A DNA stretch of 64,000 nucleotides from an uncultured Acidobacteriota bacterium. Lineage in GTDB: Bacteria > Acidobacteriota > UBA6911. Made by a program: the position numbers and the translations under genes. Every line of letters starts with the position of its first letter. Within the stretch, counting starts at the first letter, position 1. This document shows, piece after piece, positions 1-64,000 of this stretch. The notes under the pieces were generated by a model that was not told where the DNA came from, did no database searches, and was given only the letters and a program-made list of their open reading frames with translations. The DNA is taken from the NCBI GenBank assembly GCA_963809485.1, contig CAWEJX010000012.1, positions 128,001 to 192,000 on the forward strand, given 5' to 3'.

Positions 1-551
1 GCAAATCCTTTTTCAATATCCCCAAACTTGATAGGAGGCTGCCTCGTCTTATTGTTCGACTTGGGATTTGTGTCCGGGCGCATTATTGGAGCGCCCGGCT
101 TCAACGCTTCCTCAGGGTCCAGGATGACCGGCAGTTCTTCTATCTCGAGTTCTATCAGCCGCAATGCCCGGTCTACTATCGCCTCGCTTTCGCCTACCAC
201 CACAGCTCCCATCATCCCCGGATACCAGTGGTTCGTGTCGGAGACAAGCGCTTGGCCTTGATACTTAGGCCAGGTTATCGTGGGGTCATCATATCGGAGT
301 ACCGCTCGGACTCCGGGGAAAGCCTCGGCCTTGCTGGTATCCAGGCGTTTGATCTTAGCGTGGCCGTGGGGGGATCTAAGAAACTTCGCATATAGCATCC
401 CCGGACGGTATATATCCCGGGTATACACTGCGCTTCCGCTCGCTTTTTCGTAACCATCCAGACGGCGTATGCGGCGTTTCCCGATCACACCGCCTTCCGG
501 CACCGGCCAAAGCCACGGATATAAGGGTTCTCCCTCTTTTAGACCGTACAT
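1..551 (-). CDS. Xanthine dehydrogenase family molybdopterin-binding large subunit, clade 1; N-terminal part, runs off window start
   Basis: ATG at 551 with GAGGAG RBS. Reads MYGLKEGEPLYPWLWPVP..DGYEKASGSAVYTRDIYRPGMLYAKFLRSPH, near-identical to the N-terminus of 14120..16468. Absent from the ORF track because there is no stop in the window. Confidence 0.9.
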   Translation of the reverse strand, partial: MYGLKEGEPLYPWLWPVPEGGVIGKRRIRRLDGYEKASGSAVYTRDIYRPGMLYAKFLRSPHGHAKIKRLDTSKAEAFPGVRAVLRYDDPTITWPKYQGQALVSDTNHWYPGMMGAVVVGESEAIVDRALRLIELEIEELPVILDPEEALKPGAPIMRPDTNPKSNNKTRQPPIKFGDIEKGF

Positions 552-562
552 TTTCTCCTCCT

Positions 563-1225
563 CTAGGCGTTCCCGATGACTTCCTTAATCGCTATGATGT
601 GTTGTGTATAGGTGCCGCACCGGCATATGTTGCCCCCCAGCGCGTCCCTCATATCCGCTTCAGTCGGCTTGGGAATACGGTCCAGCAGCGCCTTGGCCGT
701 TACCACAAATCCCGGCGTGCAGTAGCCGCACTGCATGCAATGGTTCAGAACGTAAGCCTCGATGAGTTGCGGATTGTTAATGGCAACACCTTCTGCCGTC
801 TCTATGGCCATGCCGTCACAATCCGCCGCAAACGTCATGCAGGAAAGCACCGGCCGCCCGTTCATAATCACCGTGCACGATCCGCAGGCCCCGTAACCGT
901 TGCACATATCTTTGATGGATATAAAGCCCAGCTGATCGCGAAGCACATCGCGCAGCATCCATTCCGGCTCGACCCGGAGCTCATACTTATGCTTGTTCAC
1001 GGTGAATTTTATCGTTTGGGCAGCTGCCGAGGCGGCCGGCGCGACGGTGCCCGCCGGAGCGGCACCGGCTCGACTCGCCGCCTGGGGATCAGCGGCAACC
1101 ACAGTGGCGCCGGCTCCGGTACCGAGGATGGCTACAGAGCTGACAGCAAATTCCCGGCGCGACATCGGTCCCAACCCTGTTCTTTCACATTCTTCGCTTT
1201 TCTTTTTTTCTTCCTCTTTCGACAT
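563..1225 (-). CDS. Tat-exported 2x[2Fe-2S] small subunit of Mo hydroxylase (PaoA/CoxS-like)
   Basis: SRREF twin-arginine signal; CNGYGACGSC..LSC and QCGYCTPG..ICRC motifs. Confidence 0.93.
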   Translation of the reverse strand: MSKEEEKKKSEECERTGLGPMSRREFAVSSVAILGTGAGATVVAADPQAASRAGAAPAGTVAPAASAAAQTIKFTVNKHKYELRVEPEWMLRDVLRDQLGFISIKDMCNGYGACGSCTVIMNGRPVLSCMTFAADCDGMAIETAEGVAINNPQLIEAYVLNHCMQCGYCTPGFVVTAKALLDRIPKPTEADMRDALGGNICRCGTYTQHIIAIKEVIGNA

Positions 1226-1542
1226 TGCGCACTCTCCCTGATAATTCCTGCCTTTTTATCCCCCCAAACCGAAGCTATTGCCAGGGATCCTTTGTCTAAA
1301 TTCAGCAGTTGTAATCAACGCCTGATCTCGCATCGGCTCGCATTCCCCGTAACAGTGCGAAGGCACTCCATGATTCCATTCCGATTATTTGCACTTGACG
1401 ATGAACAATTGTAAGGCGGGCGGACAAACGCGATAGATGCACACATCACCTGGCCTCAAAATCCATTTGAAAATATCGGCCGTCTATAATGGCACGCCTG
1501 AAAGCACAAAGTGGTTCTCTATTACCTGTTTAGCCGTGGCAT

Positions 1543-1585
1543 TGTCAAGATAATTGTTTTATAAAATGCAACATTCCCCTTGATA
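1543..1585. promoter_or_regulatory. Palindromic operator (1555-1573) flanked by leftward TTGACA and rightward TTGATA, each 6 bp away
   Basis: TGTCAA-gataat-TGTTTTATAAAATGCAACA-ttcccc-TTGATA; homologous to 33348..33390. Confidence 0.7.
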
Positions 1586-1616: not shown

Positions 1617-1801
1617 GTCAGGCACCTCCGGCAAAGCCGGCTTGAAAGATTGGAACCGCTCAAAGCGGTTGGACTAGTTACGCTGGTCTTGAACGCTGGC
1701 TTAGGCGGGCAAAAGCCGATGAGGCGCTTCCGATCCCCCGCCGAACAAATCGGCGTTTGTCAGCGCTTCTGTCGGCGTATCTCAGCGTTTCAAAATGCGG
1801 A
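1617..1801 (-). mobile_element. Non-autonomous IS200/IS605-like element copy A, left end missing
   Basis: Shares GTCAGGCACCTCCGGCAAAGCCGG..GAACCGCTCAAAGCGGTT..CAGCGTTTCAAAAT with the other copies. Confidence 0.75.
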
Positions 1802-1879: not shown

Positions 1880-2842
1880 CTACTCCCAGCCGCTTGGCGA
1901 GTTGTATGGTGCGACAACGCCTATGGCCTCGATTTCATGAATCTGGCCACCCCAGATTTTGAAGATATGCATCGCCAGCGTATCAAAGGGATTGTAGGAT
2001 CTATCGACCGTCTCACGCCCCGGATCATTAAGTATTCTAAATTGTTTTTTCTCCATCGCGTGACGAAAGTCGGAAAAGCCGAGCGCCAGCCCAGTCTTTT
2101 CATCGGCGATCTCGACTCGGCGACTGACAATCTCGGTGATGTATTCGAACGTTTGCATGTCGATTTGGCTCCTGCAATCGATCATTCCCGAGAGCCCGAT
2201 CGGCCGTTGGACTGCGCCGGGAATGTCGGGTCCGCTCAACGGACCGCCGGACGGCGCGGTGCGCAACCCATTCTCGTGACGATCGCAATCAGAGGCGAAG
2301 GGCGCAAGCGAACCGTTGTTCAGATCCACTGCATCGTAATAGGACTTGGCGATGTGAATCAGCCGGCCGCGCGAGTCGGCATATTCATAGGGTATTTCCA
2401 TCGGGATGGCAGGACGAACCTTGTTCAATGTCGCCGGAAGCTCGCCGCCGCGCGGGATGGCAATCAAGTGTTCGGCTTCGATGATCATGCCGTCAGCCAA
2501 CTTCAGCCGGAAACCAACCTGCGCAGGTTTCCCTTCGGACTGCATGATGACCATGCCGCCGACTTGCTGCGATAGGGGATCTGGTACGACAATTTTGAAC
2601 TCCGTCGGACCGGCCGATGCCGTTTTCCAGAGACCTTCTCCCGGCCGGATACGCTTTGCGTTTTCAACCATCCTGACACCGCTGCTCAAGGGCGCATTCT
2701 GGGGATCGTGTGCCGCCAGCGCAGCTATGTATTTATCCGCCAGCGCCATCAGGCACGTACGGTCGCAATCGGCCGCATATGCGGTTGCCATACTGAAAAT
2801 CAACAGTGCGGCTCTTCCCAGTACTGAATATACGAATCGCAT
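1880..2842 (-). CDS. Secreted hypothetical protein, probably with two NTF2/SnoaL-like halves
   Basis: GGAGG RBS before ATG 2842; signal peptide ending AYA; CDRTCL..YIAALAAHDP, CDRHENG and HIFKIWGGQIHEIEA motifs. Confidence 0.8.
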   Translation of the reverse strand: MRFVYSVLGRAALLIFSMATAYAADCDRTCLMALADKYIAALAAHDPQNAPLSSGVRMVENAKRIRPGEGLWKTASAGPTEFKIVVPDPLSQQVGGMVIMQSEGKPAQVGFRLKLADGMIIEAEHLIAIPRGGELPATLNKVRPAIPMEIPYEYADSRGRLIHIAKSYYDAVDLNNGSLAPFASDCDRHENGLRTAPSGGPLSGPDIPGAVQRPIGLSGMIDCRSQIDMQTFEYITEIVSRRVEIADEKTGLALGFSDFRHAMEKKQFRILNDPGRETVDRSYNPFDTLAMHIFKIWGGQIHEIEAIGVVAPYNSPSGWE

Positions 2843-2952
2843 AGCATCCTCCAAGCCTTCGGGTTATCCGCAGCTTTCTATGACGCTCTCAATGTCGAAC
2901 GCTTTCTGCGCAAAAGGTTCTGTAAGATCAGCCTCAAAAGACGGTGATCGTC

Positions 2953-4533
2953 TTAAGCCCAGGGCTTCTCGGCAACAACGCGTTCGCCCGCAATGCGTCC
3001 GAAAGCGACACACTCACCAAAGTTGCCCGTCCCCTGGTAGCCGAAGCTGAATATGGAGCCAAGCTCCCCGGCGGAGTACAGTCTTGGGATGGGCTTACGA
3101 TTCGTATCCAACACTTGAGCGCGACCGTTGTGTCGCGGCCCCCCCAAAGTGTTAACGAAGGCGGGCACCAGCTCCATGGCATAATAGGGTGGAGTTTGTA
3201 TCGGGATCAGTCGTTCCTTCGGCCTGCCGAATTCCGAGTCGCTACCTGCCGCACAAGACCGATTCCATGTAGCCAGAGTCTTTTCCAGAATGTCCGGATT
3301 TTTCCCCATTTTTGAGGCCAGCTCGCGTATGGTATCGCCCTTGAGAATCCAGCCCTTCTGCAATTCCACGCTGCTGTCGGCGCTCCATTTATATTTTTCA
3401 ATCACTCCGTGCCAGCACCAAAATTCATCAGCCCGGTAAAGCGGGCCACTATTTCTCCCGACCTCATCAAAAACCGCGTGTACTGGCAAGGGCGGGGGAA
3501 GATGAACGTAGGTACCGTGGTAGGCTACCTTGCCGTGTTTGCCAGGTTGGTTTTCGTTGACGAACCTTGTTGCGTCACTGGCAGCAAAAATGTATCCCCC
3601 GGCAGACAGGGTGAATCCGGCGCCAAAGGCCCATTCACAGCCTGGAGCTTTAAAACTAAGAACTGTACCGCACATATTAGCCATGTGCCAAAGGTCGGCG
3701 CCCACGGCCTGAGCCATTCTTATACCGTCACCGGTGTTATAGGGGCTGCCAAATGGGTATGCGTACGGCAGCAGAAGGTAGTCACGGATCATCTCCTGAT
3801 TGTTTTCGTACCCGCCGGTACACAGGATCACACCCTTTTTCGCTTTAACATATACCTTTTTACCTTGTCTTTCCGCGATTACACCATGGATTTCCCTGCT
3901 CTTATAATCCTGGACCAATTCAATTCCAGGCGTTTCATACATGATCTTTACTTGCCTCTTGTCGACGGCTTCTTTGAGCATCTTCCAGAGCCTGGAGTAT
4001 CCCCACCCCTCTGCGGAGCCGCACATATAGCCGCTTCCGGATCCAGGCAACTCAGGAAATTCTGCCTGGGCCGTTCCGGAAGTGCGCTGACTGATTTTTC
4101 CGCTGCATGTTTTTTTCAGCCATTCGAAGCTCTTTGTGGTGTATTCATGATAGGCCTGAAATACTTCATCGGGGACTGGATATCGGCCATTGAGCGCCTT
4201 TTGATAAGTAAGGGCTTCATCGAGGTTGGGCGGACACCAAACACCCTGCATGCTTACCCTGCTGTTGCCTCCCGCGTGAGCTTCGGATGCCTTCTCGAGG
4301 ATCAGCACGTCGGCGCCCAGATCACGGGCAGCTATGGCTGAACTAAGGCCGGCTCCCCCTATTCCCAGCACAACGACCTCCGTCTCATGGTCCCATTTCG
4401 AAACCTGACTTTGCTGGGCCGCCGCTGCTTCTCTCGAACCGGCGCCGGCCAGAGCGGCCGAGCCTGCGCTGACTGCTGCTGTTTGTATAAAATTCCTCCT
4501 TGTGAGACGATTTCTTTTCCTTTCAGCTTTCAT
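2953..4533 (-). CDS. Tat-exported FAD-binding oxidoreductase (fumarate reductase/3-ketosteroid dehydrogenase flavoprotein superfamily)
   Basis: TRRNF Tat motif; GIGGAG, AGGNS, LCTGGYE, NTGDG, RLYSAGE, FGRIAG motifs. Confidence 0.92.
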   Translation of the reverse strand: MKAERKRNRLTRRNFIQTAAVSAGSAALAGAGSREAAAAQQSQVSKWDHETEVVVLGIGGAGLSSAIAARDLGADVLILEKASEAHAGGNSRVSMQGVWCPPNLDEALTYQKALNGRYPVPDEVFQAYHEYTTKSFEWLKKTCSGKISQRTSGTAQAEFPELPGSGSGYMCGSAEGWGYSRLWKMLKEAVDKRQVKIMYETPGIELVQDYKSREIHGVIAERQGKKVYVKAKKGVILCTGGYENNQEMIRDYLLLPYAYPFGSPYNTGDGIRMAQAVGADLWHMANMCGTVLSFKAPGCEWAFGAGFTLSAGGYIFAASDATRFVNENQPGKHGKVAYHGTYVHLPPPLPVHAVFDEVGRNSGPLYRADEFWCWHGVIEKYKWSADSSVELQKGWILKGDTIRELASKMGKNPDILEKTLATWNRSCAAGSDSEFGRPKERLIPIQTPPYYAMELVPAFVNTLGGPRHNGRAQVLDTNRKPIPRLYSAGELGSIFSFGYQGTGNFGECVAFGRIAGERVVAEKPWA

Positions 4534-4822
4534 AAGCTTTTCTCCCATTGGAAGTCTCCTGTGGCAATCGGGCTGTTATGCTGTCTATTATGTGTGTATT
4601 ACAAATGGAATGATAGGAAATTGTTTTTGACGGTGTTGGGAAAACATCCGCGAATTATCACAGATTGGGGAGGGGAGGCTGTTGCTGCGTATGGGATAAT
4701 GTGTCCGCAGGAATTGAACCTGCACTAAGGCAGCGATGGGGCAGGCAATATATTGAATTTACTGCTTTGAGACTCCCCTATTATGTGGCAAAAATAGGAA
4801 ATCTCAAGAGGTGGGAGGCTGC

Positions 4823-6136
4823 ATGCGAAAATGGTTAACCCGACCCTCAATGCATGTTTTGGCGGCAGTTGTATTTGCAGGCTGTCTTTGGGCGAACTGG
4901 CCGCAGTGGCGTGGGCCCGAATCGAACGGCACGGCGCCGAAAGCCCACGACCTTCCCGTAACATGGTCCGATTCCCGAAACATCCTGTGGCGGACAAAGC
5001 TGCCAGGCTGGAGCGCAGCCACGCCCGCTGTCTGGCAGGATAGGATCTTCGTAACCTCCGCCGAGGAAGGATCTCCGCGCCTGCGCAGCGAAAACCCCGG
5101 GGATGCAGCACGCGACAAAATTTTCCTGATTGCGATAAACCGGAAAGATGGTTCTATTCGATGGCAGTGTCAGATCGACTCCGGCAATAGGCTCTTCCGG
5201 AAACAGAATTCTGCCTCACCTTCTCCGATAACGGATGGCAGCCGGGTTTGGATTATGACGGGCAACGGCAAGCTCATCTGTCTCACGCTGGATGGGAAGG
5301 AGATCTGGAAACGTGATATCCAGGCTGAGTATGGTAAATTCGGTCTCAATCATGGGTACGCCTCGACGCCGCTGCTCCACGGCGGGCGGCTCTACGTCCA
5401 GGTTTTGCACGGGATGCTTACTGACGACCCGTCCTATGTATTTGCTGTGGATAAAAATACAGGCAAGACGCTATGGAAGTCGAACCGTCCCACTGACGCC
5501 AGTAAGGAGTCCCCCGACAATTATGCGACTCCGCAGATGGCGAAGGTGGAAGGGAAACTGCAACTCGTGATCTCCGGCGCCGATTATGTGACCGGCCACG
5601 ATCCGGATACTGGAAAAGAGCTATGGCGGATCGGCGGCTTCAATCCAGCAAACAATCCCGCCAATCGTACCGTCGCATCCTCTCTTGTGATCGGAGAGAA
5701 CGTGTTTACGCCAAGCACGAGAGGCCGTCCGTTCATTGCCTTCCGCGCCGGAGGTTCAGGCAACATCACCGGGAAGAGTGAACTCTGGACCAACAACCTG
5801 GCGGCTGACGTGCCGACGCCGACCACCGACGGCAAATACATTTATGCCCTCGGGGACAACGGGATCATGAACTGCATCGAAGCAGCAACCGGCAGCGTCG
5901 TTTATCAGGGGAAGCGTATCGAGAATGGAACCTACAGCGCGTCTCCTCTCCTGGCGGACGGCAAGATCTATTGTGTTAGCGAAGACGGCACGACTACTGT
6001 CGTGAGGGCCGGGCTTGCGTTTGAGATCTTGGGTGTGAACAAGTTGGACGGCCTGACGCTAGCCAGCCCGGTGGCTGTGGACAATCAGATCTTCATTCGA
6101 ACCGCCGACTATCTCTACTGTATTCAACAAATATAG
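4823..6136 (+). CDS. Secreted PQQ-binding-like (BamB-type) beta-propeller protein
   Basis: Signal peptide then NWPQWRGP; repeated TGK..W, ASP and YSASP propeller repeats. Confidence 0.88.
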   Translation: MRKWLTRPSMHVLAAVVFAGCLWANWPQWRGPESNGTAPKAHDLPVTWSDSRNILWRTKLPGWSAATPAVWQDRIFVTSAEEGSPRLRSENPGDAARDKIFLIAINRKDGSIRWQCQIDSGNRLFRKQNSASPSPITDGSRVWIMTGNGKLICLTLDGKEIWKRDIQAEYGKFGLNHGYASTPLLHGGRLYVQVLHGMLTDDPSYVFAVDKNTGKTLWKSNRPTDASKESPDNYATPQMAKVEGKLQLVISGADYVTGHDPDTGKELWRIGGFNPANNPANRTVASSLVIGENVFTPSTRGRPFIAFRAGGSGNITGKSELWTNNLAADVPTPTTDGKYIYALGDNGIMNCIEAATGSVVYQGKRIENGTYSASPLLADGKIYCVSEDGTTTVVRAGLAFEILGVNKLDGLTLASPVAVDNQIFIRTADYLYCIQQI

Positions 6137-6785: not shown

Positions 6786-8504
6786 ATGCGTTTCGGAAAA
6801 TTTCTGATATTGTGCTTCCTCGAATTGAGTCTATTTCCACTGCATGCTCAGGAACCCAAAGTTACTGTAATGAACCCGCTGGGAACTCCCCCTCCGATCC
6901 GGCTGGTTCCCATGGCGCCGCGACTCGATACGCTCGACGGCAAGACCGTGTATTTTGTCGATTCGCGCTATGTGGGAGGAGATATCTTCCTGAAGGAGAT
7001 GATGTCCTGGTTTTCCGTGAACATGCCCAAAGTTAAGCTTGAATTCAGGCAGAAGGCCGGCGCCTACGCGGAAAGCGATCCCCAGTTGTGGGACGAGATC
7101 CGGCAAAAAGGGGATGCTGTAATTATGGCGATCGGGCATTGAAGTACCTGCACGCCGGCGGTCGTCGGCCATTGTCTCGAGCTCGAGAAACTCGGCAAGC
7201 CCACTGCGCCTGTTGTTACGAACAGCTTTGTGGCGTTGGCAAGAGGCAATGCCCATAAGCGCGGCATGCCGGGAGAACGTTTCACCTTTGTTCCGCACCC
7301 TGTCTTCGGGAAGACGCCGCAGGAAATGCGGCGCGATATTGAAGGGAAGGATCCGGTCACGGGAAGACCGGTCATGCAGGAAATCGTGGAAGCCCTGACC
7401 AAGCCGCTGACTGCGGAAGAAAGGAAGGATGGATTCCTGCAGAGGCCGCCAAATCCCCGGTTCCTTCCCCCCGATACTGCGGACAACCTGCAGCGATATT
7501 TTCACGAACATGGAATGACGGACTATCTCCCGGTCATTCTTCCTACCGGGGAAAAGGTAGCCGCCATGCTCAAGGGAACCAGTCATGACCGCAACGAGGT
7601 GGTTGGAAAAATGGCGGGAGGCGCGTTCGACCCCTGGGAATACACGGTGGAACAGGTGGCCGTGAATGCCGTCATGGCCGGTGCGCGGCCGGAATACTTG
7701 CCGGTTATCCTCGCACTGGCATCTAGCGGGCAGGCATCGCTGTACAGTTCCACAAACTCATTCGCATATTCCGTGGTGGTCAACGGGACGATTCGCGACG
7801 AGATAAAAATGCACTACAGGGTCGGAGCGATGGGGCCGTTCAGCCAGGCGAACGCAACGATTGGAAGAGCATGGACTTTGATGTCGAGAAACCTGGCAAA
7901 CGGAGGCATCGTCGGAGAGACATACCTTGGGTCCACCGGGAACAATCTGAATTACAACAATCTCGTTGTCGCCGAGAATGAAGCGGACAGTCCGTGGAAT
8001 TCACTGAGTGTGCAATTAGGATACAAACCGGGGGAGAGCGTCATCAGCATCTTTACCGGTTTGGGAATGCAGCCGGGACAATTTGCGAAGGGGGGCGGCA
8101 TTTCGGTAAAGCCTCGGTATGACGAACAGTTTCTGAGCGTAATAAGCAATTTCACTACGCTGTTTGGAGCTTTGGTAGTCTGTGATCCCCTCATTGCCAA
8201 GGCTCTCAAGGAACAGGGCTACGATACAAAAGAAAAGCTGATTGACTGGCTTTATAAAAATGCCGTCCATACGGTGCGGGAATATAAGGACGCCAGTTTT
8301 GTGCTGACATTTGATCTTCCTCGAGCTCAGAAGGGCGTTGAGCCCTTCGCCTCGTGGTTCAAGCTGCCGGATGACGCAAAAATTCCAATCTTTATAAAGC
8401 CGTCGGATCTCTCGATTGTGGTGGCAGGCGGCCAGACGCAGGCCAGGTTCCAAGCGGGGAATCTACGCTATACGGCGAGTTTTTCTGTTGACAAATGGAG
8501 ATAA
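6786..8504 (+). CDS. Secreted UGSC-like selenoprotein 1 (572 aa), Sec at TGA 7140-7142
   Basis: ORFs 6786..7142 and 7230..8504 are in the same frame. Readthrough gives AIGH-U-STC-TPAVVGHCLELEKLGKP. C-terminal domain has TDYLPVILPT and AVNAVMAGARPEYLPV. Signal peptide ends LHA. Confidence 0.88.
7154..7169 (+). promoter_or_regulatory. Candidate bacterial SECIS hairpin
   Basis: GCCGGC-GGTC-GTCGGC; G-initiated loop starts 17 nt after the UGA. Confidence 0.65.
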
Positions 8505-8535: not shown

Positions 8536-8850
8536 TCACGGCCAGGTCCATGGTTTGATTGGGGCCGCATTTCTGCCGGCTATGCGCCCGAATGCGCTCG
8601 CGTCCCAAACGTTGCCATCGGTGACGCTATAGGTTCTGCCGCAGATTGAACCTATAGCGCCGGCTAAGAACTGTCGTAGGACAGGGGTCAGATCAGGATT
8701 CAATACCTCGGATCTGGGGCAGAACGAGGCGGACCGCCGTGGGTGCAGACGCCACCCGGTCCCGGTGCTTTGGCAAAGGTGTAATAGGGCGGAGCGTTCC
8801 CCAGAAGCAGACTCGACGCCGGCCGTTTGTGTTCCCAAGGCATTGCTCCA
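8536..8850 (-). pseudogene. Decayed C-terminal fragment of an FAD flavoprotein paralog
   Basis: Across frames: AGVESASG, PPYY, CTHGGP, EVLNPD..AGAIGS..AFGRIAGRNAAPIKPW, colinear with the C-termini of intact paralogs. Confidence 0.75.
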
Positions 8851-47693: not shown

Positions 47694-47703
47694 GAGGAGC
47701 ACT

Positions 47704-52241: not shown

Positions 52242-52385
52242 GTCAATTCCTCCAATCTCCAGAGCGGATACTCTGCGTTTGTATTATTCGATGTTGCTTC
52301 GCGATGGCAGGGGCAAGTCACCTCGCACGATTATTTCGCGGAATCAACGGCCTCTGTGGAACAGACTTTGTTTTGATCCGGATCT

Positions 52386-53333: not shown

Positions 53334-53585
53334 AATGTTCATCAAAGTACCAAATGTGGGTGGCCTGCACGACACAAGTCTATTTGCACACATACCTCCG
53401 GCCGGCGGGGCATGCGCACCACGGAGGCAATTTCCCGCCGCAACTACCTTCGGGAATAAGCACGGCGCGCATGCTGGCACAGACGCGATTTGGAAGGTCA
53501 ATCTGAGGCATGCGCAAAAGCCTCGAGACTCCCGCCTGCTTCTCTACCGAGATGAAAGCATTGTTGCCAAAAGCATTCTAGCATA

Positions 53586-53603: not shown

Positions 53604-53789
53604 TATTGTCCCGGGAGTCTGACTAAAGTCTGACAGCCTTTTTTATGCATATGCAGCCCCGCCTATAACAATGGGAATACTCTTTATGGAAGAGACATAA
53701 ACTCTGCATCCGCAACTTTGAGAAAGCAGATGGGAGTGGCACGAATCTCGAACCGGATGCGCACACAAAAGAGATCGAGGAGGGACCCA

Positions 53790-54440: not shown

Positions 54441-54458
54441 AGCTATTTGGAGGCAAAC

Positions 54459-56215: not shown

Positions 56216-57871
56216 CTACCCCCACACTTTCAGGGCGGCTGCGTGCTCTCCGGCGATGCGGCCGAACGAATGAGCTTCAGGTATGTTTGTTCCGCCGGTG
56301 TAGCATAGGCTGAAGAATGAGCCCAGTTCGCCCACGCTGTACAGCCTTGGTATGGGTTTGCCCTCTTTGTTCAACGTTTGGCCTTTGCTGTTATGCTGCG
56401 GCCCACCCATTGTATTGATGAGGCTCAGAGCCATCTCCATGCCGTAAAAGGGCGGACTTTCGATAGGCAGCAAGGTCGTATTGCCGAACAGCTGGTCCTT
56501 TTTTATCCTGCTGGCCTCATTTACCTGCTCCACAGTGCGTTGCAGCCCCTCAGGGTTTATCTTAAGCATCGCGGCTAATTCCGCGATAGTATTCGCCTGC
56601 TTCACCCAGCCTTTGGATATTTCGGCGCTGTTATCTTTGCTCCAGTCATAAAGTTTCTTAACGTGCGCGAACTTTGTATCCGTGTTAGGCCTTAACGGGG
56701 TTACAAACGGGCCTTTCTTCCGGTATGTTTCATCGCAGACAAGGAAGTAAGGCATATTCGGATAGCCGCCCATGCCATGCCACAAGCCCGGGCGGACATC
56801 TATTCCGCTTTTGAAATCGGTAGGTTCTATGTTCGGCCGCCGATGCGTGAAACTGATGGTTTCATTCACGAACCTATCACCGGCCCGATTCACATAGATA
56901 TGACCTCTTTGAAGGCTGCACTCGATTGCGCATCCAAATTCCCTGCTCGCAGGAGCACAACAGCCGGCTTCCCATTCCTTCAAGAACATGTGCCACAGGG
57001 GAGCTCCCACCTCACTGGACATCAGAATGCCGTCGCCGGTATTGTATGGCGTGCCTCCGGTGAATACTTCCATGCCCGGGTAATTAAAATAGGACCACAT
57101 TTGCAGATTTCCCTCGTAGCCGCCGCAAGCAAGGATCACTCCTCTCTTTGCTTTTACGTAAACCTTCCTTCCCCCTTCTCCATGGAAGCCCTTGGCCCCT
57201 TCATAGGCCACGACGCCCAGGATCTCCTTTGTTATAGGGTCCTGAACCAGTTCTTTGGCCGGGGTCTCGTACATGATCCGGATGTTTCGTTTTTCCACTT
57301 GAGCTTGAATAGCCCGATACAGGTGACTGCCATTAGATCCTCCGGTTTCACTATTGGCAATAAACCAGGTCTTCTTGGTGTTCTGTCCGCCCGCTTTCAT
57401 TTCGATCCCCAACTTCTTAAGCCAGCCCAGGACGTTCTGGCCCCCGCCCATTGCCAACGTGTCCACCATGGTCCGCACCAACTCATCCGGCACATCGCAG
57501 CCGGCGTGCCGAAGGTCCGTGTAGCACTCCTTGGGGTCATCCCAAACAGAATTGCCTCCAACCGCGCAACAGGAGTTGCCACCGGAAAGCTCCTTTGTCG
57601 CCTTCTCCAGCACGATAACTTTTGCTCCGGCGTCATGCGCAGCAATAGCCGCGCTCTGGCCGGCATATCCTATCCCCGCGACCACCACATCCGCTTCATA
57701 ATCCCATCTTTTCGGCAGCCAGGGCTTCTGTTCATTGGTACCCTGGGCTGTTGACGGCGCTGACAGGGCTGAAGAAGCAGAAGCGCCAAGGGCTCCTGTG
57801 GCAAAGGCGGCGCCAGTGCCCAAAAACTCTCTTCTTGGAAACCGCTTTTTCGCTTTCCTATCCTCGATCAT
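56216..57871 (-). CDS. Tat-exported FAD-binding oxidoreductase, second subgroup
   Basis: PRREFL; GIGYAG, GGNSCC, NTGDG, LYSVGE, FGRIAG. Confidence 0.92.
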   Translation of the reverse strand: MIEDRKAKKRFPRREFLGTGAAFATGALGASASSALSAPSTAQGTNEQKPWLPKRWDYEADVVVAGIGYAGQSAAIAAHDAGAKVIVLEKATKELSGGNSCCAVGGNSVWDDPKECYTDLRHAGCDVPDELVRTMVDTLAMGGGQNVLGWLKKLGIEMKAGGQNTKKTWFIANSETGGSNGSHLYRAIQAQVEKRNIRIMYETPAKELVQDPITKEILGVVAYEGAKGFHGEGGRKVYVKAKRGVILACGGYEGNLQMWSYFNYPGMEVFTGGTPYNTGDGILMSSEVGAPLWHMFLKEWEAGCCAPASREFGCAIECSLQRGHIYVNRAGDRFVNETISFTHRRPNIEPTDFKSGIDVRPGLWHGMGGYPNMPYFLVCDETYRKKGPFVTPLRPNTDTKFAHVKKLYDWSKDNSAEISKGWVKQANTIAELAAMLKINPEGLQRTVEQVNEASRIKKDQLFGNTTLLPIESPPFYGMEMALSLINTMGGPQHNSKGQTLNKEGKPIPRLYSVGELGSFFSLCYTGGTNIPEAHSFGRIAGEHAAALKVWG

Positions 57872-57970: not shown

Positions 57971-59596
57971 TTACGACCACGGCTTCAGTGAGGCGGCATT
58001 GTCTCCGGCGATGCGGCCAAAAGCAATCGCCTCCGGTATGTTGCTGCCGCCGGGATACAGGAATCCGAAGAATGATCCGAATTCCCCTGGACTATAGAGT
58101 CTGGGAATGGGTTTATCGTCCTGGTCGAGCGTCTGAGCCTTTGTATTGTGCTTGGGCCCGCCCTGGGTATTGATAAGGGTAAGGGCCAGCTCCACGCCGT
58201 AATAGGGTGGAGTCGTTAGTGGGGATAGCGAGTTGTCTCTTCTGCTGAAGTCGGGATCCTTTTTCCCACTGCAAAATTGATTGTACTTGGTGACAGTCTC
58301 CTGCAGCCCCTCCGGCTCGATCCTCATTTTGGCGGCCAGATCTCTGAGGGTATCTGCCCTGGATACCCAGCCCTTCTCGATTTCGGCGCTGCTGCCTTCA
58401 CTCCATTGATACAGACCGTGAACCGCATTCCAGGTCATTCCGCTCTGCCGTCCGAGCCGCTGTTTGGAACGCACACTCTCATCGAAGATGGCGTAAAATG
58501 GCTGATTGGGGTACTCCACACGGTCGTGATGAAAATACGTCAGCTCCAGGGATTCCTTGGTGTGAACCATGGATTTCAGTTCGTTCATGAATCGCTTGCC
58601 ATATTTGTTTACATAGATATAACTGCCGGTAAGAGTTACCTGAACCGAAACACCGGCTTGTTCACTCGCCGTCTTTACGGAATGCCCCGCCCACTCAAGG
58701 CTGAACGTATGCCATAGAGGCGCCCCCACCTCCGACACCATTTTTAGGCCATCGCCGGTATTGTAGGGTGACCCCCAGGGGTAGATTCGTATCCCCGGAT
58801 AATTAAAGTAGGACATCATCTCGGGATTGTTCTCGTACCCTCCGCACGCCAGAACCACTCCCCTTTTGGCTTTTATGTAAATCTTCCTCCCCTGTTTTTC
58901 CGCTATTACGCCGACAATCTCCTTGGTCGCCGGATCCTGCATCAGGTGTTTTGCCCGGGTCTCGTATTGAATGGGAATCCCTCTGCTTTTCACGCACTGG
59001 TCGAGCGCCATGTACAACTGTTTGCCAGCCCCGTAGTTCGGCGGCGCATCTTTTACGGGCTTGATGGAAAAAATCTTGCCATTATTCGCTCCCGGAAGGG
59101 TGCGCAGCCCTATCATGGCTTCCGGGGCCGTCTTCGCATAGTCGCGTGTGACTATGGTTTCAATCCCAAGTTTCCTAAGCTGCTCCGGAACTTGGGCTAA
59201 AGCCTCGGCCATAAAGTCGCACAATTCCTTCGGCGATGTCCCAAAGGAGAGTGCATGATAATAGGGAGCTCCTTCCTTTGCGCCGTTGGGCACTGTCATG
59301 CCGCCGCCGGAACAGGAGGAGTTCCCCCCTGCATATTTTTCCGGCGCTTTTTCGATAATCAGCGTTTTTGCCCGGGCGTCATGACTGGCGATAGCGGCAT
59401 TCTGGCCCGCATAGCCCATTCCTACCACCACTACGTCCGCTTCGTAATCCCATTTATCGGGCAACCAGCCTTTGGACGCACCCAATAGCGTTTCGCCCCC
59501 TGGCCCGAGCAACAATCCGGCGGCTCCTGCGGTTGCCGATCCCTTGAAAAACTGTCTGCGTGTGATTTCCTTTTTCTTCACGTCATCCGAACGCAT
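57971..59596 (-). CDS. Tat-exported FAD-binding oxidoreductase, second subgroup
   Basis: TRRQFF; GMGYAG, GGNSSC, NTGDG, FGRIAG. Confidence 0.92.
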   Translation of the reverse strand: MRSDDVKKKEITRRQFFKGSATAGAAGLLLGPGGETLLGASKGWLPDKWDYEADVVVVGMGYAGQNAAIASHDARAKTLIIEKAPEKYAGGNSSCSGGGMTVPNGAKEGAPYYHALSFGTSPKELCDFMAEALAQVPEQLRKLGIETIVTRDYAKTAPEAMIGLRTLPGANNGKIFSIKPVKDAPPNYGAGKQLYMALDQCVKSRGIPIQYETRAKHLMQDPATKEIVGVIAEKQGRKIYIKAKRGVVLACGGYENNPEMMSYFNYPGIRIYPWGSPYNTGDGLKMVSEVGAPLWHTFSLEWAGHSVKTASEQAGVSVQVTLTGSYIYVNKYGKRFMNELKSMVHTKESLELTYFHHDRVEYPNQPFYAIFDESVRSKQRLGRQSGMTWNAVHGLYQWSEGSSAEIEKGWVSRADTLRDLAAKMRIEPEGLQETVTKYNQFCSGKKDPDFSRRDNSLSPLTTPPYYGVELALTLINTQGGPKHNTKAQTLDQDDKPIPRLYSPGEFGSFFGFLYPGGSNIPEAIAFGRIAGDNAASLKPWS

Positions 59597-59612: not shown

Positions 59613-59764
59613 TACCGCGATTACGAACCTTCTGGATTTCAATTTGCAGATCGGAGGCAGAATGTCGCCTCCTCGATGTACTTCGGCTGCAATGGAAATA
59701 TCGATCTGCCGCTCAAATTGACTGAGATCCGAATGGGGTCGCGTTTTCCGATATGAAATTCCAC
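59613..59764 (-). pseudogene. 5' remnant of a fourth GntR gene
   Basis: GGAGGT RBS, GTG, VEFHIGKRDPI, frameshift, SQFERQIDISIAAEVHRGGDILPPI..NRG; compare MEFQIEKNSPV..KQIQEQIKLSIAMGVLKRGDILPPI..NRG. Confidence 0.78.
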
Positions 59765-60329: not shown

Positions 60330-60615
60330 AATAATCGCCAAGATGCGACACATTTCTTCATCCTGATTCTCACCGGCAAAGACGCGGTCGCAGTTGGGAA
60401 CGATATATTCAGACAACCAGAGAATCTCCGGAGAAGCATGACAGCTTCATTGCGGTTCCGGAGCATAAGTGCCAGGAGGGCGCCAGGGTGATCGCACCCT
60501 GGGAAGCGTGCCCCGCCGAGCGGCGGCGATCATGGGACGGATTTGGCGCCAGCGCCAAAACTCCGGGGTGTCGCTGTGCGTTTGTAATATTACAGGCGAT
60601 AGGAGGGTGCATCCA

Positions 60616-63600
60616 ATGCGTTCCAATGCATGCTTGGTTGTAATTGCTTGTCTGATCCTTTCGGTAACGCCAGCTTCGGCTCAAAGCGACCGAGGTGCCA
60701 TAACCGGCACCGTTTCCGATCCTGCGGGAGCCGTAATTTCCTCAGGTTCCATCGAAGCAAAGAATGTGAACACCGGAGCGGTGTATAAGGCCGCAACTAC
60801 ATCAACCGGCAATTACACTCTAACGCAACTGCCGGCGGGCTCATACCAGTTGTCGGCCTCAGTCCAAGGCTTCAAACAGTACGTCCGGACCGGTATTACG
60901 GTCCTGGTGGCTCAAACGTTGCGCATCGACATAATGCTCGAAGTGGGCAGCATTACCGAAACCATCACGGTGAATGCCGATGCTCCCCTTCTGAAGACGG
61001 AAAGCGGAGAGCTGAGCCATAATGTCAGTTCCGAAACTCTCGGCAGCCTGCCAATACTTGGATTCTCGTCCTCTATCCGCGATCCCTATGCCACGACTCA
61101 GCTAATTCCAGGCGCTCTCTTCCAGGAAAGAACTTATGTACGAATCAACGGCGCCCCCGCCAACACGCAGGGCTTCCGGGTCGAGGGCCAGGATGCCAGC
61201 AATTCCATGCGCATGACTCAGACGGCGCAGAACCAGCCCAGCGTAGATGCGGTGGAAGAGTTTGCAGTTCAGACCAGCAACTATGCCGCCGAGTACGGCC
61301 AGGCTGGAGGCGGTTTCTTCAATATCACGATGAAATCAGGCAGCAACCGCTTCCATGGAAGTGCGTACGACTATTGGATTAATGAAGCACTGAACGCGAG
61401 CACGCCTTTCCTGAACACCAAGAACAGGCAGCGTCGGAACAACTACGGATTTACTCTGGGCGGACCCGTATGGATTCCCAAGGTGTACGACGGTCACGAA
61501 AAGACCTTTTTCTTTTTCAACTTCGAGCAGTTTCGTGAAAACGTCACATACAGTAATAGCCCCTATACGATTCCAACGCTCGCCTATCGCGCGGGGGATT
61601 TCCGCCAGGCCCTGACCGGAAGAAAACTCGGAACCGATCCTCTCGGCCGCGATATCATGGAAGGCACAATATACGATCCGGCGACCGACCGTCTTGCGCC
61701 CAACGGGCAGCGTGTCCGGGATCCGTTTCAATACCAGGGAATTCCGAATACCATTGATCCTGCCCGGTTTGATCCGGTTGCGGTCAAGATCCAGGACCTG
61801 ATTCCCAAACCCACCAACTCAAACCTCACCAACAACTATCTTGTCCCTTGGCCCAGCTCCAATATCCGGACTATCCCGTCCATAAAGGTCGATCACAATT
61901 TTGGCCCGCGCTCCAAGCTGTCCGTCTATTGGTCCATGACGAGGCTGACTGCGTTGGACCAGACCCCCTTCTGCGACGGAATCCAGAGTCCTGTTACGGG
62001 TTGCAGAAACTCCTATGGCAACTCGCATACATTCCGTCTGAACTTCGACCAGACGCTGACGCCCACCACCGTCCTGCATTTCGGAGCTGGTCTGCACACG
62101 CTGGGATGGAAGGATGACACGAATTTTACCGATTTCGATCAGCTCAAGGAACTGGGTCTGCCAGGCGCTAGCGTCACTCTTTTCCCATACATTACTTTCC
62201 CGACCAGTCAGCCCCGAGGCGGCATGAAAAACATGGGCCCGCTTATGCAGAGCCATGAAGACATGGAAAAGCCGACTGCAAATGCCAGCTTGACATGGGC
62301 CAAATCCAGCCACACCTATAAATTCGGGGCTGAAATGCGCCTGGAAGGATATCCGACGCAGGTCTTTAATCCTGCCTATGGCACTTACAACTTTGCTCTC
62401 AGCCAAACCGGACTTGCCATTTCCGGTCTGAACCTCTCCGGCGGAACCATAGGATTCGCCTATGCAAATCTTCTCCTGGGGTTTGTTGACAACGGCAATA
62501 TAGGGGTCGTCAGCAGTCCCCGCATGGGCAAATCCGCGTGGGCTTTGTATGCTCAGGACAGCTGGAAGGTAACCCGCCGGTTCACTCTGGACTATGGATT
62601 GCGATGGGACTACCAGGGCTACTTAAGGGATACCTATGGCCGGATTGCGAATTTCTCCCCTACCACGCCGAACCCCTCCACCGGGGGTCTCCCCGGTGCG
62701 GTGATCTTTGAAGGCTCGGGGCCGGGTCGCTGCAATTGCGATTTCGCGCAGGTCTATCCCTATTCTTTCGGACCGCGGTTGGGAGCGGCCTATCAGATCT
62801 CGGCCAAGACAGTGCTGCGCGCCGGATTGGGTGTCATGTACGGGCAAACCGCAACCGAGAACAGGATTTCCACGAGCATTGCATCGAATAATCTGTTCTC
62901 CACCTCATCCTATGGAGATCCGAGTATATTGCTGAAAGACGGCCCACCAACCCCTGGTCCGTGGCCCAACCTGGACCCCGGCCAGTATCCGCGTCCAGGG
63001 CAGACCACTGCGCCTCCGACCGCATTTGACAATAATGCGGGGCGGCCACCGAGGATGATTCAGTGGAGCTTGAGCATTCAAAGGGAAATTTTTAAGAACC
63101 TGGTGGTTGAGATTTCCTATATCGGCAACCGGGGCGCCTGGTGGGAAGGGAACGAGCTCATCAACGTAAACGCATTGACACCGGAGCGGCTCAACACATT
63201 CGGGCTCAATATAAACAGCCCTGCCGACCAGGCGCTGCTGAAGGCCCGAATGGATTCTTCCACGGCAAAGCTGCGCGGATTCGACACACCGCCCTACTCA
63301 GGTTTTCCCATGTCATCCACCGTTGCCCAATCTTTGCGGCCCTTCCCGCAGTTCGGCACGATCAACTACCTCTGGGCTCCGCTCGGCAGAACCTGGTACG
63401 ACTCGATGCAGATTAAGGTGACAAAGCGGTTTTCCCGCGGGCTGGATTTTACCAGTTCGTTCAGCTGGCAGAAGGAACTCATGATGGGTGCAGAGGTGTC
63501 CAACGCACTGCTGACCGTTCCTGCGGCCGTTAACGATGTATTTAATCGTCCAACGAATAAGTACATCTCGAGGCTGTCACGGCCGTTCGTTTCCGTTACG

Positions 63601-64000
63601 GCAGTGAACTACACGTTCCCCAAGCTGGATGTGAATAAGGTCCTGTCGTGGGCGATCCGCGACTGGACATTTGGCGCCGTCCTGCAGTATGCCAGCGGTA
63701 TGCCCATCAAGGTTCCGACCGCAAACAGCCAGCTCATGTCATTGCTCTTCCGGGACACCTTTGCCAACCGAATCGAGGGCCAGCCGCTTTGGAAGCAAGG
63801 GGTGGACATCAACGACAGGAGCACTTACGATCCATACACGGATTTCGTTCTGAATCCGAAAGCATGGACGGATCCGCCTGCCGGTCAGTTCAGTTACTCA
63901 CCAGGCTATTACAGCGACTATCGTTATATGCGCCGCCCTTCTGAAGCCATGAGCATCGGGCGGATTTTCCGTGTCAAAGAAGGGGTTTCCCTGAATATCC
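60616..64000 (+). CDS. TonB-dependent receptor paralog, runs off window end
   Basis: AGGAGG RBS, ATG 60616, MRSNACLVVIACLILSVTPASA/QSDRGAITGTV; colinear with 33535..37199; absent from the ORF track because there is no stop. Confidence 0.9.
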   Translation, partial: MRSNACLVVIACLILSVTPASAQSDRGAITGTVSDPAGAVISSGSIEAKNVNTGAVYKAATTSTGNYTLTQLPAGSYQLSASVQGFKQYVRTGITVLVAQTLRIDIMLEVGSITETITVNADAPLLKTESGELSHNVSSETLGSLPILGFSSSIRDPYATTQLIPGALFQERTYVRINGAPANTQGFRVEGQDASNSMRMTQTAQNQPSVDAVEEFAVQTSNYAAEYGQAGGGFFNITMKSGSNRFHGSAYDYWINEALNASTPFLNTKNRQRRNNYGFTLGGPVWIPKVYDGHEKTFFFFNFEQFRENVTYSNSPYTIPTLAYRAGDFRQALTGRKLGTDPLGRDIMEGTIYDPATDRLAPNGQRVRDPFQYQGIPNTIDPARFDPVAVKIQDLIPKPTNSNLTNNYLVPWPSSNIRTIPSIKVDHNFGPRSKLSVYWSMTRLTALDQTPFCDGIQSPVTGCRNSYGNSHTFRLNFDQTLTPTTVLHFGAGLHTLGWKDDTNFTDFDQLKELGLPGASVTLFPYITFPTSQPRGGMKNMGPLMQSHEDMEKPTANASLTWAKSSHTYKFGAEMRLEGYPTQVFNPAYGTYNFALSQTGLAISGLNLSGGTIGFAYANLLLGFVDNGNIGVVSSPRMGKSAWALYAQDSWKVTRRFTLDYGLRWDYQGYLRDTYGRIANFSPTTPNPSTGGLPGAVIFEGSGPGRCNCDFAQVYPYSFGPRLGAAYQISAKTVLRAGLGVMYGQTATENRISTSIASNNLFSTSSYGDPSILLKDGPPTPGPWPNLDPGQYPRPGQTTAPPTAFDNNAGRPPRMIQWSLSIQREIFKNLVVEISYIGNRGAWWEGNELINVNALTPERLNTFGLNINSPADQALLKARMDSSTAKLRGFDTPPYSGFPMSSTVAQSLRPFPQFGTINYLWAPLGRTWYDSMQIKVTKRFSRGLDFTSSFSWQKELMMGAEVSNALLTVPAAVNDVFNRPTNKYISRLSRPFVSVTAVNYTFPKLDVNKVLSWAIRDWTFGAVLQYASGMPIKVPTANSQLMSLLFRDTFANRIEGQPLWKQGVDINDRSTYDPYTDFVLNPKAWTDPPAGQFSYSPGYYSDYRYMRRPSEAMSIGRIFRVKEGVSLNI

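Follow-up and report, generated by a model that had tools for sequence, protein, structure and literature searches.

The 64,000-nt stretch of DNA analyzed here (the window; positions 128,001 to 192,000 of contig CAWEJX010000012.1 in assembly GCA_963809485.1, from an uncultured bacterium of the Acidobacteriota lineage UBA6911) carries an array of recurring genes for TonB-dependent receptors (TBDR), beta-helix proteins (BH), FAD_binding_2 flavoproteins (FAD2), molybdenum (Mo) hydroxylases of the xanthine oxidase (XO) family, selenoproteins with a UGSC domain fused to a further domain (Sel) and GntR regulators, and a box of about 34 bp precedes six of its operons. We put at roughly even odds (about 0.5) the reading that the window forms the core of an island, lineage-specific and co-regulated, which serves the uptake and periplasmic processing of small molecules or oligomers; its substrates would probably be alicyclic or aromatic compounds of plant origin in esterified or glycosylated form. 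The inventory combined Pfam scans of 44 large open reading frames (ORFs), NCBIfam scans of 42, all-versus-all BLASTP and tblastn of the products onto the window. It yielded five FAD2 proteins of about 540 aa, five XO-family Mo large subunits (MoL), three 2Fe-2S small subunits (FeS), two FAD_binding_5 subunits (FAD5), four BH paralogs of about 670 aa, three UGSC-fusion genes with a single in-frame TGA, three GntR genes of about 320 aa and two TonB receptors, one of them frameshifted and the other cut by the window end. These counts bear out what an earlier note, made from the letters alone, had claimed, namely that the same families recur two to five times each. The GC content is even across the window (0.50-0.565).

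The shared box and the operons behind it

A mismatch-tolerant search of the intergenic DNA, in which a repeat resembling miniature inverted-repeat transposable elements (MITE) had been masked, returned eight matches to TTGTCAAGATAATTGT at no more than 3 mismatches, compared to 0.55 expected, and none of 100 shuffles reached eight. Six of these matches are real boxes, located in five intergenic regions. The full box of about 34 bp reads TTGTCAAGATAATTGTT-N9-TGCAACATT, and its opposite strand ends in a perfect TTGACA (the -35 hexamer), which in all six boxes is directed at a correctly oriented operon. The operons in question are FeS_a-MoL_a, BH-FAD2_b-MoL_c, MoL_d, TBDR_a, BH-FAD2_c and FeS_c-MoL_e-FAD5_b, so that one receptor, TBDR_a, shares its box with five enzyme operons; GntR_b sits between two boxes, and GntR_a comes after the boxed receptor. 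Genome-wide, other full boxes were found only at two further FeS-MoL-FAD5 loci; one of these two boxes, placed between a TonB receptor and an FeS-MoL-FAD5-Sel operon, forms a perfect palindrome. Boxes 1 and 3 have similar flanks, and the flanks have otherwise diverged. The proposal that several of these operons share one operator is in agreement with these data, which suggest that the box may serve as a promoter and that the neighboring YtrA-like GntR paralogs may bind it.

A sister motif to this box, TTGTCAAG..TGTCACA-N5-TGTGACA, shares its -35 arrangement. It adjoins FAD2, TonB-receptor and Sel genes in 7 of 20 FAD2 loci from other members of the genus, and was found in three BH loci of other genus genomes as well (loci L103, L105, L106, L111, L114, L115, L116, L003, L036 and L048). 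It also occurs at four places in the genome under study (G000 C12:230046, C12:247848, C4:157026 and C8:397854). A compact case is L111, where a TBDR gene, a sister box and FAD2-Sel follow one another. Judged from the sequences, this looks like a family of paralogous GntR regulators with diverged operators.

The features of the window are the following (Tat, twin-arginine translocation; Sec, general secretion; SDR, short-chain dehydrogenase/reductase; MBL, metallo-beta-lactamase).

3-551, minus strand: MoL_a, XO-family Mo large subunit, N-terminal part, running on past the window end (Pfam Ald_Xan_dh_C; 85% identical to MoL_b)
563-1225, minus strand: FeS_a, 2Fe-2S subunit with an N-terminal extension of about 70 aa containing SRREF (Tat-like); the PaoA model aligns from residue 24
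1542-1575, plus strand: shared box 1, minus-strand -35 TTGACA directed at FeS_a-MoL_a
1880-2854, minus strand: u1880, exported protein of 324 aa from an unknown family with 22 paralogs in the genome, downstream of FAD2_a
2953-4548, minus strand: FAD2_a, Tat-type KstD/flavocytochrome-c-like flavoprotein (Pfam, NCBIfam)
4811-6136, plus strand: PQQ_2-type beta-propeller protein with a signal-like N-terminus (Pfam)
6786-8504, plus strand: Sel_c, UGSC-fusion selenoprotein (TGA 7140-7142, GHUSTC; Sec-type leader)
8545-8834, minus strand: decayed FAD2 C-terminal fragment (tblastn)
9072-11087, plus strand: BH, exported right-handed beta-helix protein, pectate-lyase-like superfamily (weak match)
11521-11625: decayed Sel piece (tblastn/translation reading)
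11721-12987, minus strand: URO-D-like gene, interrupted by a single frameshift near 12500-12520
13140-14105, minus strand: FAD5_a, FAD-binding medium subunit (Pfam, NCBIfam)
14120-16468, minus strand: MoL_b, Mo large subunit (Pfam, NCBIfam)
16484-17146, minus strand: FeS_b, Tat-type 2Fe-2S subunit, 96.8% identical to FeS_a
17186-19162, minus strand: BH, heading the operon BH-FeS_b-MoL_b-FAD5_a
19827-19860, minus strand: shared box 2, directed at the BH(frameshifted)-FAD2_b-MoL_c operon
20136-22138, plus strand: BH, in three frame pieces with two frameshifts; the ortholog in genome G006 is intact
22168-23799, plus strand: FAD2_b, Tat-type flavoprotein (Pfam, NCBIfam)
23857-26295, plus strand: MoL_c, Mo large subunit of an orphan type (no adjoining FeS/FAD subunit, no signal)
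26603-28333, minus strand: Sel_a, UGSC-fusion selenoprotein (TGA 27890-27892, GDUGTC; Sec-type leader)
28528-30198, minus strand: Sel_b, UGSC-fusion selenoprotein (TGA 29806-29808; motif UGTC)
30659-33007, minus strand: MoL_d, Mo large subunit without an adjoining FeS/FAD subunit
33347-33391: shared boxes 3 and 4, overlapping, directed left to MoL_d and right to TBDR_a
33496-37199, plus strand: TBDR_a, TonB-dependent receptor (CarboxypepD_reg and OMP_b-brl_4), with one frameshift near 35304-35313
37506-38468, plus strand: GntR_a, YtrA-like helix-turn-helix plus a C-terminal domain of about 200 aa without Pfam assignment
38804-40471, minus strand: FAD2_c, Tat-type flavoprotein
40653-42674, minus strand: BH, heading the operon BH-FAD2_c
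43249-43282, plus strand: shared box 5, directed at BH-FAD2_c (TTGACA-18-TAGGAT; the sole box also called by the sigma-70 scan)
43369-44322, plus strand: GntR_b, 79% identical to GntR_a, between boxes 5 and 6
44336-44369, minus strand: shared box 6, directed at FeS_c-MoL_e-FAD5_b
44621-45283, plus strand: FeS_c, Tat-type 2Fe-2S subunit (SRRVFLK)
45105-47693 (ORF as listed), plus strand: MoL_e, Mo large subunit, start likely near 45290, after FeS_c
47641-48666, plus strand: FAD5_b, FAD-binding subunit, start likely near 47704
48968-53501, minus strand: operon of GntR_c, a serine hydrolase (Beta-lactamase family), an SDR and an MBL-fold hydrolase, no export signals seen
53718-54440, plus strand: Tat-signal protein of 240 aa from an unknown family with 20 paralogs
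54447-56023, plus strand: carboxylesterase gene, disrupted into three frame pieces
56216-57871 and 57971-59596, minus strand: FAD2_e and FAD2_d, tandem Tat-type flavoproteins, 45% identical
60469-63999, plus strand: TBDR_b, TonB-dependent receptor cut by the window end
19289-19399, 28346-28423, 33038-33181 and 42945-43106: decayed TonB-receptor pieces
59649-59747: decayed GntR piece

The intergenic gaps suggest the following operons: BH-FeS_b-MoL_b-FAD5_a, possibly with the URO-D-like gene; BH(frameshifted)-FAD2_b-MoL_c; BH-FAD2_c; FeS_c-MoL_e-FAD5_b; FAD2_a-u1880, separate from FeS_a-MoL_a; MoL_d, possibly with Sel_b and Sel_a; Sel_c with a BH gene; FAD2_e-FAD2_d; GntR_c-hydrolase-SDR-MBL; and the Tat protein with the carboxylesterase. 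The decayed fragments that had been proposed were found as pieces of FAD2, Sel, TonB-receptor and GntR genes, and the beta-helix, TonB-receptor, URO-D-like and carboxylesterase genes listed as frameshifted or disrupted add to them. Likewise, the proposed lack of a cytochrome, a membrane anchor and an inner-membrane transporter held within the window, where no CxxCH motif was present in any stop-to-stop frame of at least 60 aa and a crude scan found no real ORF with three or more hydrophobic spans, the sole such frame being antisense. Rfam returned zero families in the window at gathering thresholds.

The masked repeat is a non-coding element of about 200 nt with internal hairpins, present in six copies in the window (1639-1801, 11243-11440, 26389-26587, 30265-30508, 38515-38693 and 48705-48811). 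Public runs cover it hundreds to thousands of times. As a candidate for a shared operator it was rejected because it gave 554 blastn high-scoring segment pairs spread over all 21 contigs, a distribution which identifies it as an element resembling those of the MITE or repetitive extragenic palindrome type.

Export signals and the redox families

Export signals were judged by eye from the translations. A twin-arginine (RR) motif followed by a hydrophobic stretch is present on all five FAD2 proteins, on all three FeS subunits and on the 240-aa protein at 53718, and Sec-like leaders were seen on the beta-helix, Sel, u1880, PQQ-like and esterase proteins, which agrees with the view that most products of the array carry Sec or Tat signals. 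The Mo and FAD5 subunits in the window have no signal. The further proposal of a periplasmic Mo, flavin and selenium chemistry was supported in part: the export motifs and a layout like that of the Escherichia coli PaoABC enzyme speak for it, while MoL_c, MoL_d and the GntR_c-hydrolase-SDR-MBL operon lack signals. Since MoL_c and MoL_d have neither an FeS/FAD partner nor a signal and belong to a type that stands alone elsewhere, a periplasmic location is unproven for these two subunits.

The FAD2 proteins of the window are 35-76% identical to each other in pairwise BLASTP comparisons. The nearest solved relatives of FAD2_b are 3-oxosteroid 1-dehydrogenase (7p18, the closest, E 8.6e-32), flavocytochrome c3 and urocanate reductase. 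None of the FAD2 proteins reached an NCBIfam equivalog cut-off; they scored 147-190 bits against NF009478 (KstD; cut-off 789) and 161-188 bits against TIGR01813 (cut-off 285), and weak NCBIfam matches to vinyl phenol reductase were also obtained. No Pfam match to the FMN_bind domain occurred among the window ORFs. When FAD2_b was aligned to flavocytochrome c3, VHHTMGG corresponded to FTNTLGG and ANRLGG to HYQGAG, so that neither stretch is conserved; the GVHHTMGG and ANRLGG stretches of flavocytochrome c3 are those which we take to hold the substrate (fumarate)-binding His and Arg.

Two FeS-MoL-FAD5 sets are complete in the window, FeS_b-MoL_b-FAD5_a and FeS_c-MoL_e-FAD5_b, and a third, FeS_a-MoL_a, runs off the window with a FAD5 copy beyond its end. 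The nearest solved relative of MoL_b is the alpha subunit of 4-hydroxybenzoyl-CoA reductase. Comparison of the two neighboring paralogous sets gave identities of 96.8% between FeS_a and FeS_b and 99% between FAD5_a and the copy at G000:C12:125229-126191, compared to 85% between the Mo large subunits. Near-identical electron-transfer subunits combined with diverging catalytic subunits suggest shared or homogenized modules, which may result from gene conversion or from selection for interchangeability. Elsewhere in the genome, genes for YqeB, two YqeC proteins and SelD, the last with its own in-frame TGA, were detected above the respective cut-offs (C7:172980-173744, C7:573539-574174, C8:97461-98108 and C8:80982-81905). 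The trio of SelD, YqeB and YqeC is described as a marker of the selenium-cofactor trait of Mo hydroxylases (PMC9312934), and its presence links selenium with XO-family enzymes in this organism. The selenium of such enzymes is a labile non-protein ligand, in contrast to the selenocysteine of the Sel proteins, and the marker genes all lie outside the window.

In each of Sel_a, Sel_b and Sel_c a UGSC ORF is followed through a single in-frame TGA by a further domain of about 340 aa, giving products of 556-576 aa in total. The read-through proteins matched the Pfam UGSC family (PF24696) with 88.7-104.3 bits (cut-off 25) and carry the motifs UGTC, UGTC and USTC, while against NCBIfam NF041046, which describes a stand-alone protein of about 147 aa, they scored 72-90 bits and did not reach the equivalog cut-off of 125. 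The genome encodes tRNA-Sec together with SelA, SelB and SelD above their cut-offs, and putative SECIS-like hairpins of -16.5 to -19.5 kcal/mol can be folded in the 60 nt starting at each Sel UGA. In total, 59 loci with the Sel C-domain were counted in the genome (e.g. C12 46832, 120068 and 193185; C4 158013; C20 506517), and at least 22 paralogs combine a G-x-U-x-x-C motif with an in-frame TGA, with 19 Sec-like and 2 Tat-like leaders. Cytoplasmic-looking database homologs mostly lack Cys or selenocysteine at that site (consensus GDNGMGGW), and one of those examined has Cys (GDCSTC). A predicted Sel model (pLDDT 82.8) shows a Rossmann/flavodoxin-like N-domain with the selenocysteine between a strand and the following helix. 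Foldseek of this model against the PDB gave low-TM matches only (TMq <=0.20), in which the C-domain was not placed and was barely probed; a wide structure search matched the N-domain only, to the generic Rossmann/flavodoxin-like fold (Z about 10). Profile searches of PDB sequences found no solved relative for the Sel or BH families, and in the ESM Atlas the C-terminal part of Sel matched "hypothetical protein" clusters only. Among metagenomic relatives, 11 of 39 loci of at least 7 kb contain tandem arrays with other Sel genes, and of 45 loci of at least 5 kb, 9 contain thioredoxin-reductase-like genes and 10 contain SDR genes. Such neighbors may hint at a thiol/selenol reductase role of the Sel proteins.

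The tentative assignment to pectate-lyase-like beta-helix proteins (PL9/Pel9A-like) comes from scans below threshold, with 21.6 bits for Beta_helix (cut-off 25.9) and 16-19 bits for Chondroitinase_B (cut-off 24); PF22842 is a precomputed label on BH homologs that our own scan of BH did not reproduce. The second frameshift of the broken BH gene at 20136-22138 coincides exactly with a site (22012-22017) at which contigs from two public DNA runs (X1 and X6) lack one base, and the frameshift sites in the window are not long homopolymers; the break may be either strain-specific or an assembly error. The GntR domains scored above the cut-off (30-37 bits versus 27). Among solved structures they come closest to YtrA-type proteins, which are about 125 aa long; YtrA proper ends in a short helical domain, whereas the window proteins have about 200 further residues for which Pfam gave no match.

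Proposed chemistry and known systems

In the mechanism that we propose, compounds would be imported by the TonB-dependent receptors and unmasked by the Sec-exported beta-helix proteins and esterases. Tat-exported KstD-like flavoproteins would then add or remove a C=C bond, and PaoABC-type Mo enzymes, hitchhiking out on the Tat-bearing FeS subunit, would carry out a hydroxylation or a hydration and oxidation, with UxxC selenol/thiol redox chemistry contributed by the Sec-exported UGSC-fusion selenoproteins. The paralogous sets may act on related substrates, and the array may have grown by duplication, with catalytic subunits diverging faster than electron-transfer subunits and with some copies now decaying. 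Both the notion of a family of related compounds and that of an electron transfer from Mo enzyme to flavoprotein, raised in the earlier note, are compatible with this scheme as suppositions.

The resemblance of the array to a polysaccharide-utilization locus (PUL), also proposed from the sequence, holds in some respects and fails in others. As in the SusC/SusD PULs of Bacteroidota, the array groups a TonB-dependent receptor with exported enzymes and a local regulator under shared control, and each genome has many paralogous loci; TBDR_a shares its box with enzyme operons, and four of the five GntR genes of the genome lie within 10 kb of a TBDR gene. In contrast to PULs, SusD_RagB (PF07980) has no match in this genome (95.67% complete) and none among the 44 window ORFs, while the Bacteroides thetaiotaomicron control matches; the receptors here are of the CarboxypepD_reg plus OMP_b-brl_4 type, and the enzymes are redox proteins instead of glycoside hydrolases. 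Inner-membrane transporters of the MFS and ABC types are found 19-45 kb past the high end of the window on the same contig. PUL regulators are of the hybrid two-component or the SusR/extracytoplasmic-function type, whereas the regulator here is a YtrA-like GntR protein.

E. coli PaoABC is described as an XO-family FeS/FAD/Mo heterotrimer in which the FeS subunit alone bears a Tat signal and the other two subunits hitchhike (PMC4273604). The three sets in or touching the window share this layout, while MoL_c and MoL_d do not, being two large subunits without partners. Sequence similarity to the E. coli enzyme is low, with 111-119 bits for PaoA (cut-off 322) and 162-200 bits for PaoC (cut-off 1180) in NCBIfam, and the best solved relative is instead the alpha subunit of 4-hydroxybenzoyl-CoA reductase. 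No PaoD-like gene was present among the ORFs scanned.

The closest precedent for the chemistry, as far as the pairing of the two enzyme families goes and leaving orthology aside, is the anaerobic 2,3-seco pathway of steroid degradation. According to its description (PMC7264893), the KstD-like AcmB makes an enone, the XO-family AtcABC turns this by hydration and oxidation into a 1,3-dione, and ring opening by a hydrolase follows without oxygen; AcmB is a 3-ketosteroid delta-1-dehydrogenase and AtcABC a 1-testosterone hydratase/dehydrogenase (PMC7264893). Similarly, FAD2 genes adjoin Mo genes here, both in FAD2_b-MoL_c and in an intact BH-FAD2-FeS-MoL-FAD5 locus on contig C20 of the same genome, hydrolase genes lie nearby, and the closest relative of FAD2_b is 3-oxosteroid 1-dehydrogenase. 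Unlike that pathway, the enzymes of the window have export signals and are accompanied by TonB receptors, beta-helix proteins and selenoproteins, and FAD2 and Mo genes are no longer linked outside the closest relatives.

The UGSC family and a "UGSC/Unknown_1" fusion are on record from ocean metagenomes since 2008 (PMC2398784), and the function of the family is still described as uncharacterized (PMC13188914). The Sel proteins resemble these sequences in that their UxxC motif begins with selenocysteine and in that a conserved domain of unknown function is fused to the UGSC domain; "Unknown_1" is a possible equivalent of the Sel C-domain. They differ in being exported, in numbering at least 22 selenocysteine paralogs in one genome and in belonging, for some of them, to a regulon with TonB receptors and redox enzymes. 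It is a long shot that the Sel proteins supply the redox partner that is missing from a periplasmic loop independent of the membrane. In such a loop the Mo enzymes would oxidize one part of an imported compound, and the Tat flavoproteins would reduce another part; the electrons would pass through the UxxC center of Sel, or Sel would itself perform reductive C-X cleavage in the manner of the UxxC selenoenzymes glycine and proline reductase. This would explain the absence of a cytochrome or quinol anchor and, if true, would amount to selenium-dependent catabolic chemistry of a new, periplasmic kind.

Distribution, rival explanations and significance

Family pairs no more than 10 kb apart in this genome were compared with random placement. 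BH-FAD2 pairs were observed in 5 of 8 cases (0.5 expected), BH-MoL in 6 of 8 (0.9), FAD2-Sel in 10 of 17 (2.9), GntR-FAD2 in 4 of 5 (0.2) and GntR-TBDR in 4 of 5 (0.5), counts that overstate independence because they include the window and tandem duplicates; SDR control pairs were near random expectation. The array is also kept in two close relatives. In G006, seven window genes have the same order and orientation on one contig, including the intact ortholog of the broken BH gene, and G015 (10 contigs) retains the BH-FeS-MoL-FAD5 operon with Sel, FAD2 and GntR genes beside it. The co-occurrence in other genomes on which the earlier note had staked its reading thus came out half-way: the families cluster in this genome and in these relatives, and further away the six families are not found together.

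This last result is among several that weigh against a co-regulated periplasmic island. BH relatives number at least 572, in Acidobacteriota, Desulfobacterota, Gammaproteobacteria, Gemmatimonadota and other groups, and a BH match was found in 22 of 41 genomes, a tally that takes in the unpublished G034 (weak matches only), which was also part of the FAD2 genome search and on which nothing else here depends. In the 78 BH loci kept, from many phyla, the neighbors were carboxylesterase (13), TonB receptor (13), Sel (8), FAD2 (4), MoL (2) and GntR (1) genes, and unbiased clustering of the BH neighbors added PQQ dehydrogenases, other hydrolases, TRAP transporters, GH3 and GH43. Likewise, 20 BH loci of the genus contained carboxylesterase in 7, Sel in 4, URO-D-like in 4, MoL in 2 and FAD2 in 1. 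The FAD2 subfamily, which occurs in 23 of 25 genus genomes, in none of 17 from other genera of the family and in one genome elsewhere in the class, was accompanied in 20 loci by Sel (4), TBDR (4), GntR (2), MoL (1) and BH (0). MoL_c-type subunits were found in all 30 genus genomes, with 1-14 copies each and a conserved, signal-less N-terminus (M..YRPWTW..PE); the 20 loci covered (L127-L146) held no FeS or FAD5 gene within about 9 kb and no FAD2 or BH gene, with Sel near 6 and TBDR near 4, and in the window, too, MoL_c and MoL_d come without a Tat-bearing partner. Finally, 39 metagenomic Sel loci of at least 7 kb (from L147-L223) showed no FAD2, MoL or BH gene and one TBDR gene. The full six-family combination is a property of one small clade, while smaller modules (TBDR-box-FAD2-Sel, MoL-Sel and BH-esterase) recur more widely. 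Since the link between the families dissolves beyond close relatives, the island is to be seen as a lineage-specific regulon of generic expanded families and not as a conserved pathway. To the same side belong the reading of export signals by eye, as motifs, the absence from the window of an encoded electron donor or acceptor chain, and the sigma-70 scan, which called one of the four boxes in the region it covered and whose total was not above that of shuffles. In addition, the conservation of the box could in part be inheritance by duplication.

Taken further, this last point leads to a doubtful but serious alternative, in which the window is a duplication hot spot where independent, generic expanded families pile up, the box being inherited with duplicated segments and the substrates being unrelated. 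In line with it, every family is heavily expanded genome-wide (60 Sel, 38 MoL, 33 TBDR and 17 FAD2), neighborhoods vary in other genomes, decayed copies are many, the MITE-like repeat is present with its 554 segment pairs genome-wide and six window copies, and the flanks of boxes 1 and 3 are alike. However, the box precedes operons of unlike content (a TonB receptor, BH-FAD2 with or without MoL, FeS-MoL-FAD5 and MoL_d) whose flanks have otherwise diverged, its orientation fits the downstream operon in six of six cases, the rest of the genome lacks it except for two loci of the same families, and different families cluster about 3-20 fold over random. We consider it unlikely that the array is instead a respiratory reductase arsenal, in which Tat flavoproteins reduce organic acceptors, for example hydroxycinnamates freed by esterases, each induced by its own substrate via an adjoining regulator, with the Mo and Sel proteins as separate accessories. 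A precedent is described for "high-reductase" gut Eggerthellaceae, Burkholderiaceae and Erysipelotrichaceae, whose many exported fumarate-reductase-superfamily paralogs often lie beside regulators and are substrate-induced, with flavin and molybdopterin reductases bearing signal peptides in numbers of up to 103 per genome and Mo enzymes of the DMSO-reductase type (bioRxiv 10.1101/2022.12.26.521950). The 17 FAD_binding_2 loci in the genome, the RR motifs on 5 of 5 proteins in the window, the position of four of five GntR genes within 10 kb of a FAD2 gene, the flavocytochrome c3 fumarate reductase and urocanate reductase among the solved relatives, the weak vinyl phenol reductase matches and the wetland and soil habitat are all compatible with such an arsenal. 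On the other hand, the window has no heme motif, no membrane quinol dehydrogenase and no cytochrome or FMN-binding module (Pfam), the substrate-binding stretches of flavocytochrome c3 are not conserved in FAD2_b, and the best solved match is an oxidizing enzyme, 3-oxosteroid 1-dehydrogenase. Moreover, the Mo enzymes here are of the XO family instead of the DMSO-reductase family, and they are joined by TonB receptors, beta-helix proteins and selenoproteins.

We judge it very improbable that several strains or species of a metagenome bin were wrongly joined into this array, an outcome which the earlier note had named as one that would speak against its reading. The estimated contamination of 7.32% could point in this direction, as could paralogs that are 97-99% identical (FeS_a/FeS_b, and FAD5_a with its copy just outside the window) and public runs that hold variants 90-99% alike. 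The matching contigs from these runs are short, and none bridges the stretch. The suspicion of a misassembly was not borne out because G006 and G015 keep the array. Furthermore, a single-contig genome of the genus gives the same value of about 7%, so that the "contamination" fits real paralogy, and the paralogs are mosaic, with the Mo subunit at 85% and its partners at 97-99% identity, a pattern that strain collapse would not yield.

Several observations concern the surroundings of the co-regulated island proposed here. The window lies within a catabolic island of about 200 kb (G000:C12:68001-128000 and 192001-252000; L119-L124), whose flanks contain three tannase/feruloyl-esterase genes, several esterases, six family-III CoA-transferases, a glycyl-radical enzyme with its activase, 2-hydroxyacyl-CoA-dehydratase-like genes, cocaine-esterase-like S15 peptidases and MFS and ABC transporters. 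Going by gene content, these flanks look like those of an island for the anaerobic catabolism of plant-derived compounds. Metagenomes from at least 10 wetland and soil studies contain near-identical DNA. In a wetland metatranscriptome (X20), 12 short contigs at 19028-27574 match BH, MoL_c and Sel_a (Sel_a with 1-2 mismatches), a weak signal with possible DNA carry-over that is no proof of transcription.

In the carbon turnover of wetlands and soils, Acidobacteriota are an abundant group with a poorly known substrate range. The island proposed here would represent a defined regulon, in which a single operator and a candidate regulator family go with an importer and three exported redox enzyme classes, all from families without a characterized member. 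One genome can hold more than 20 exported selenoproteins of a single uncharacterized family, and XO-family catalytic subunits are widespread without electron-transfer partners. If the chemistry resembles the ring activation of steroids by a flavoprotein and a Mo enzyme, oxygen-independent ring cleavage would be extended to the periplasm and to new substrates.

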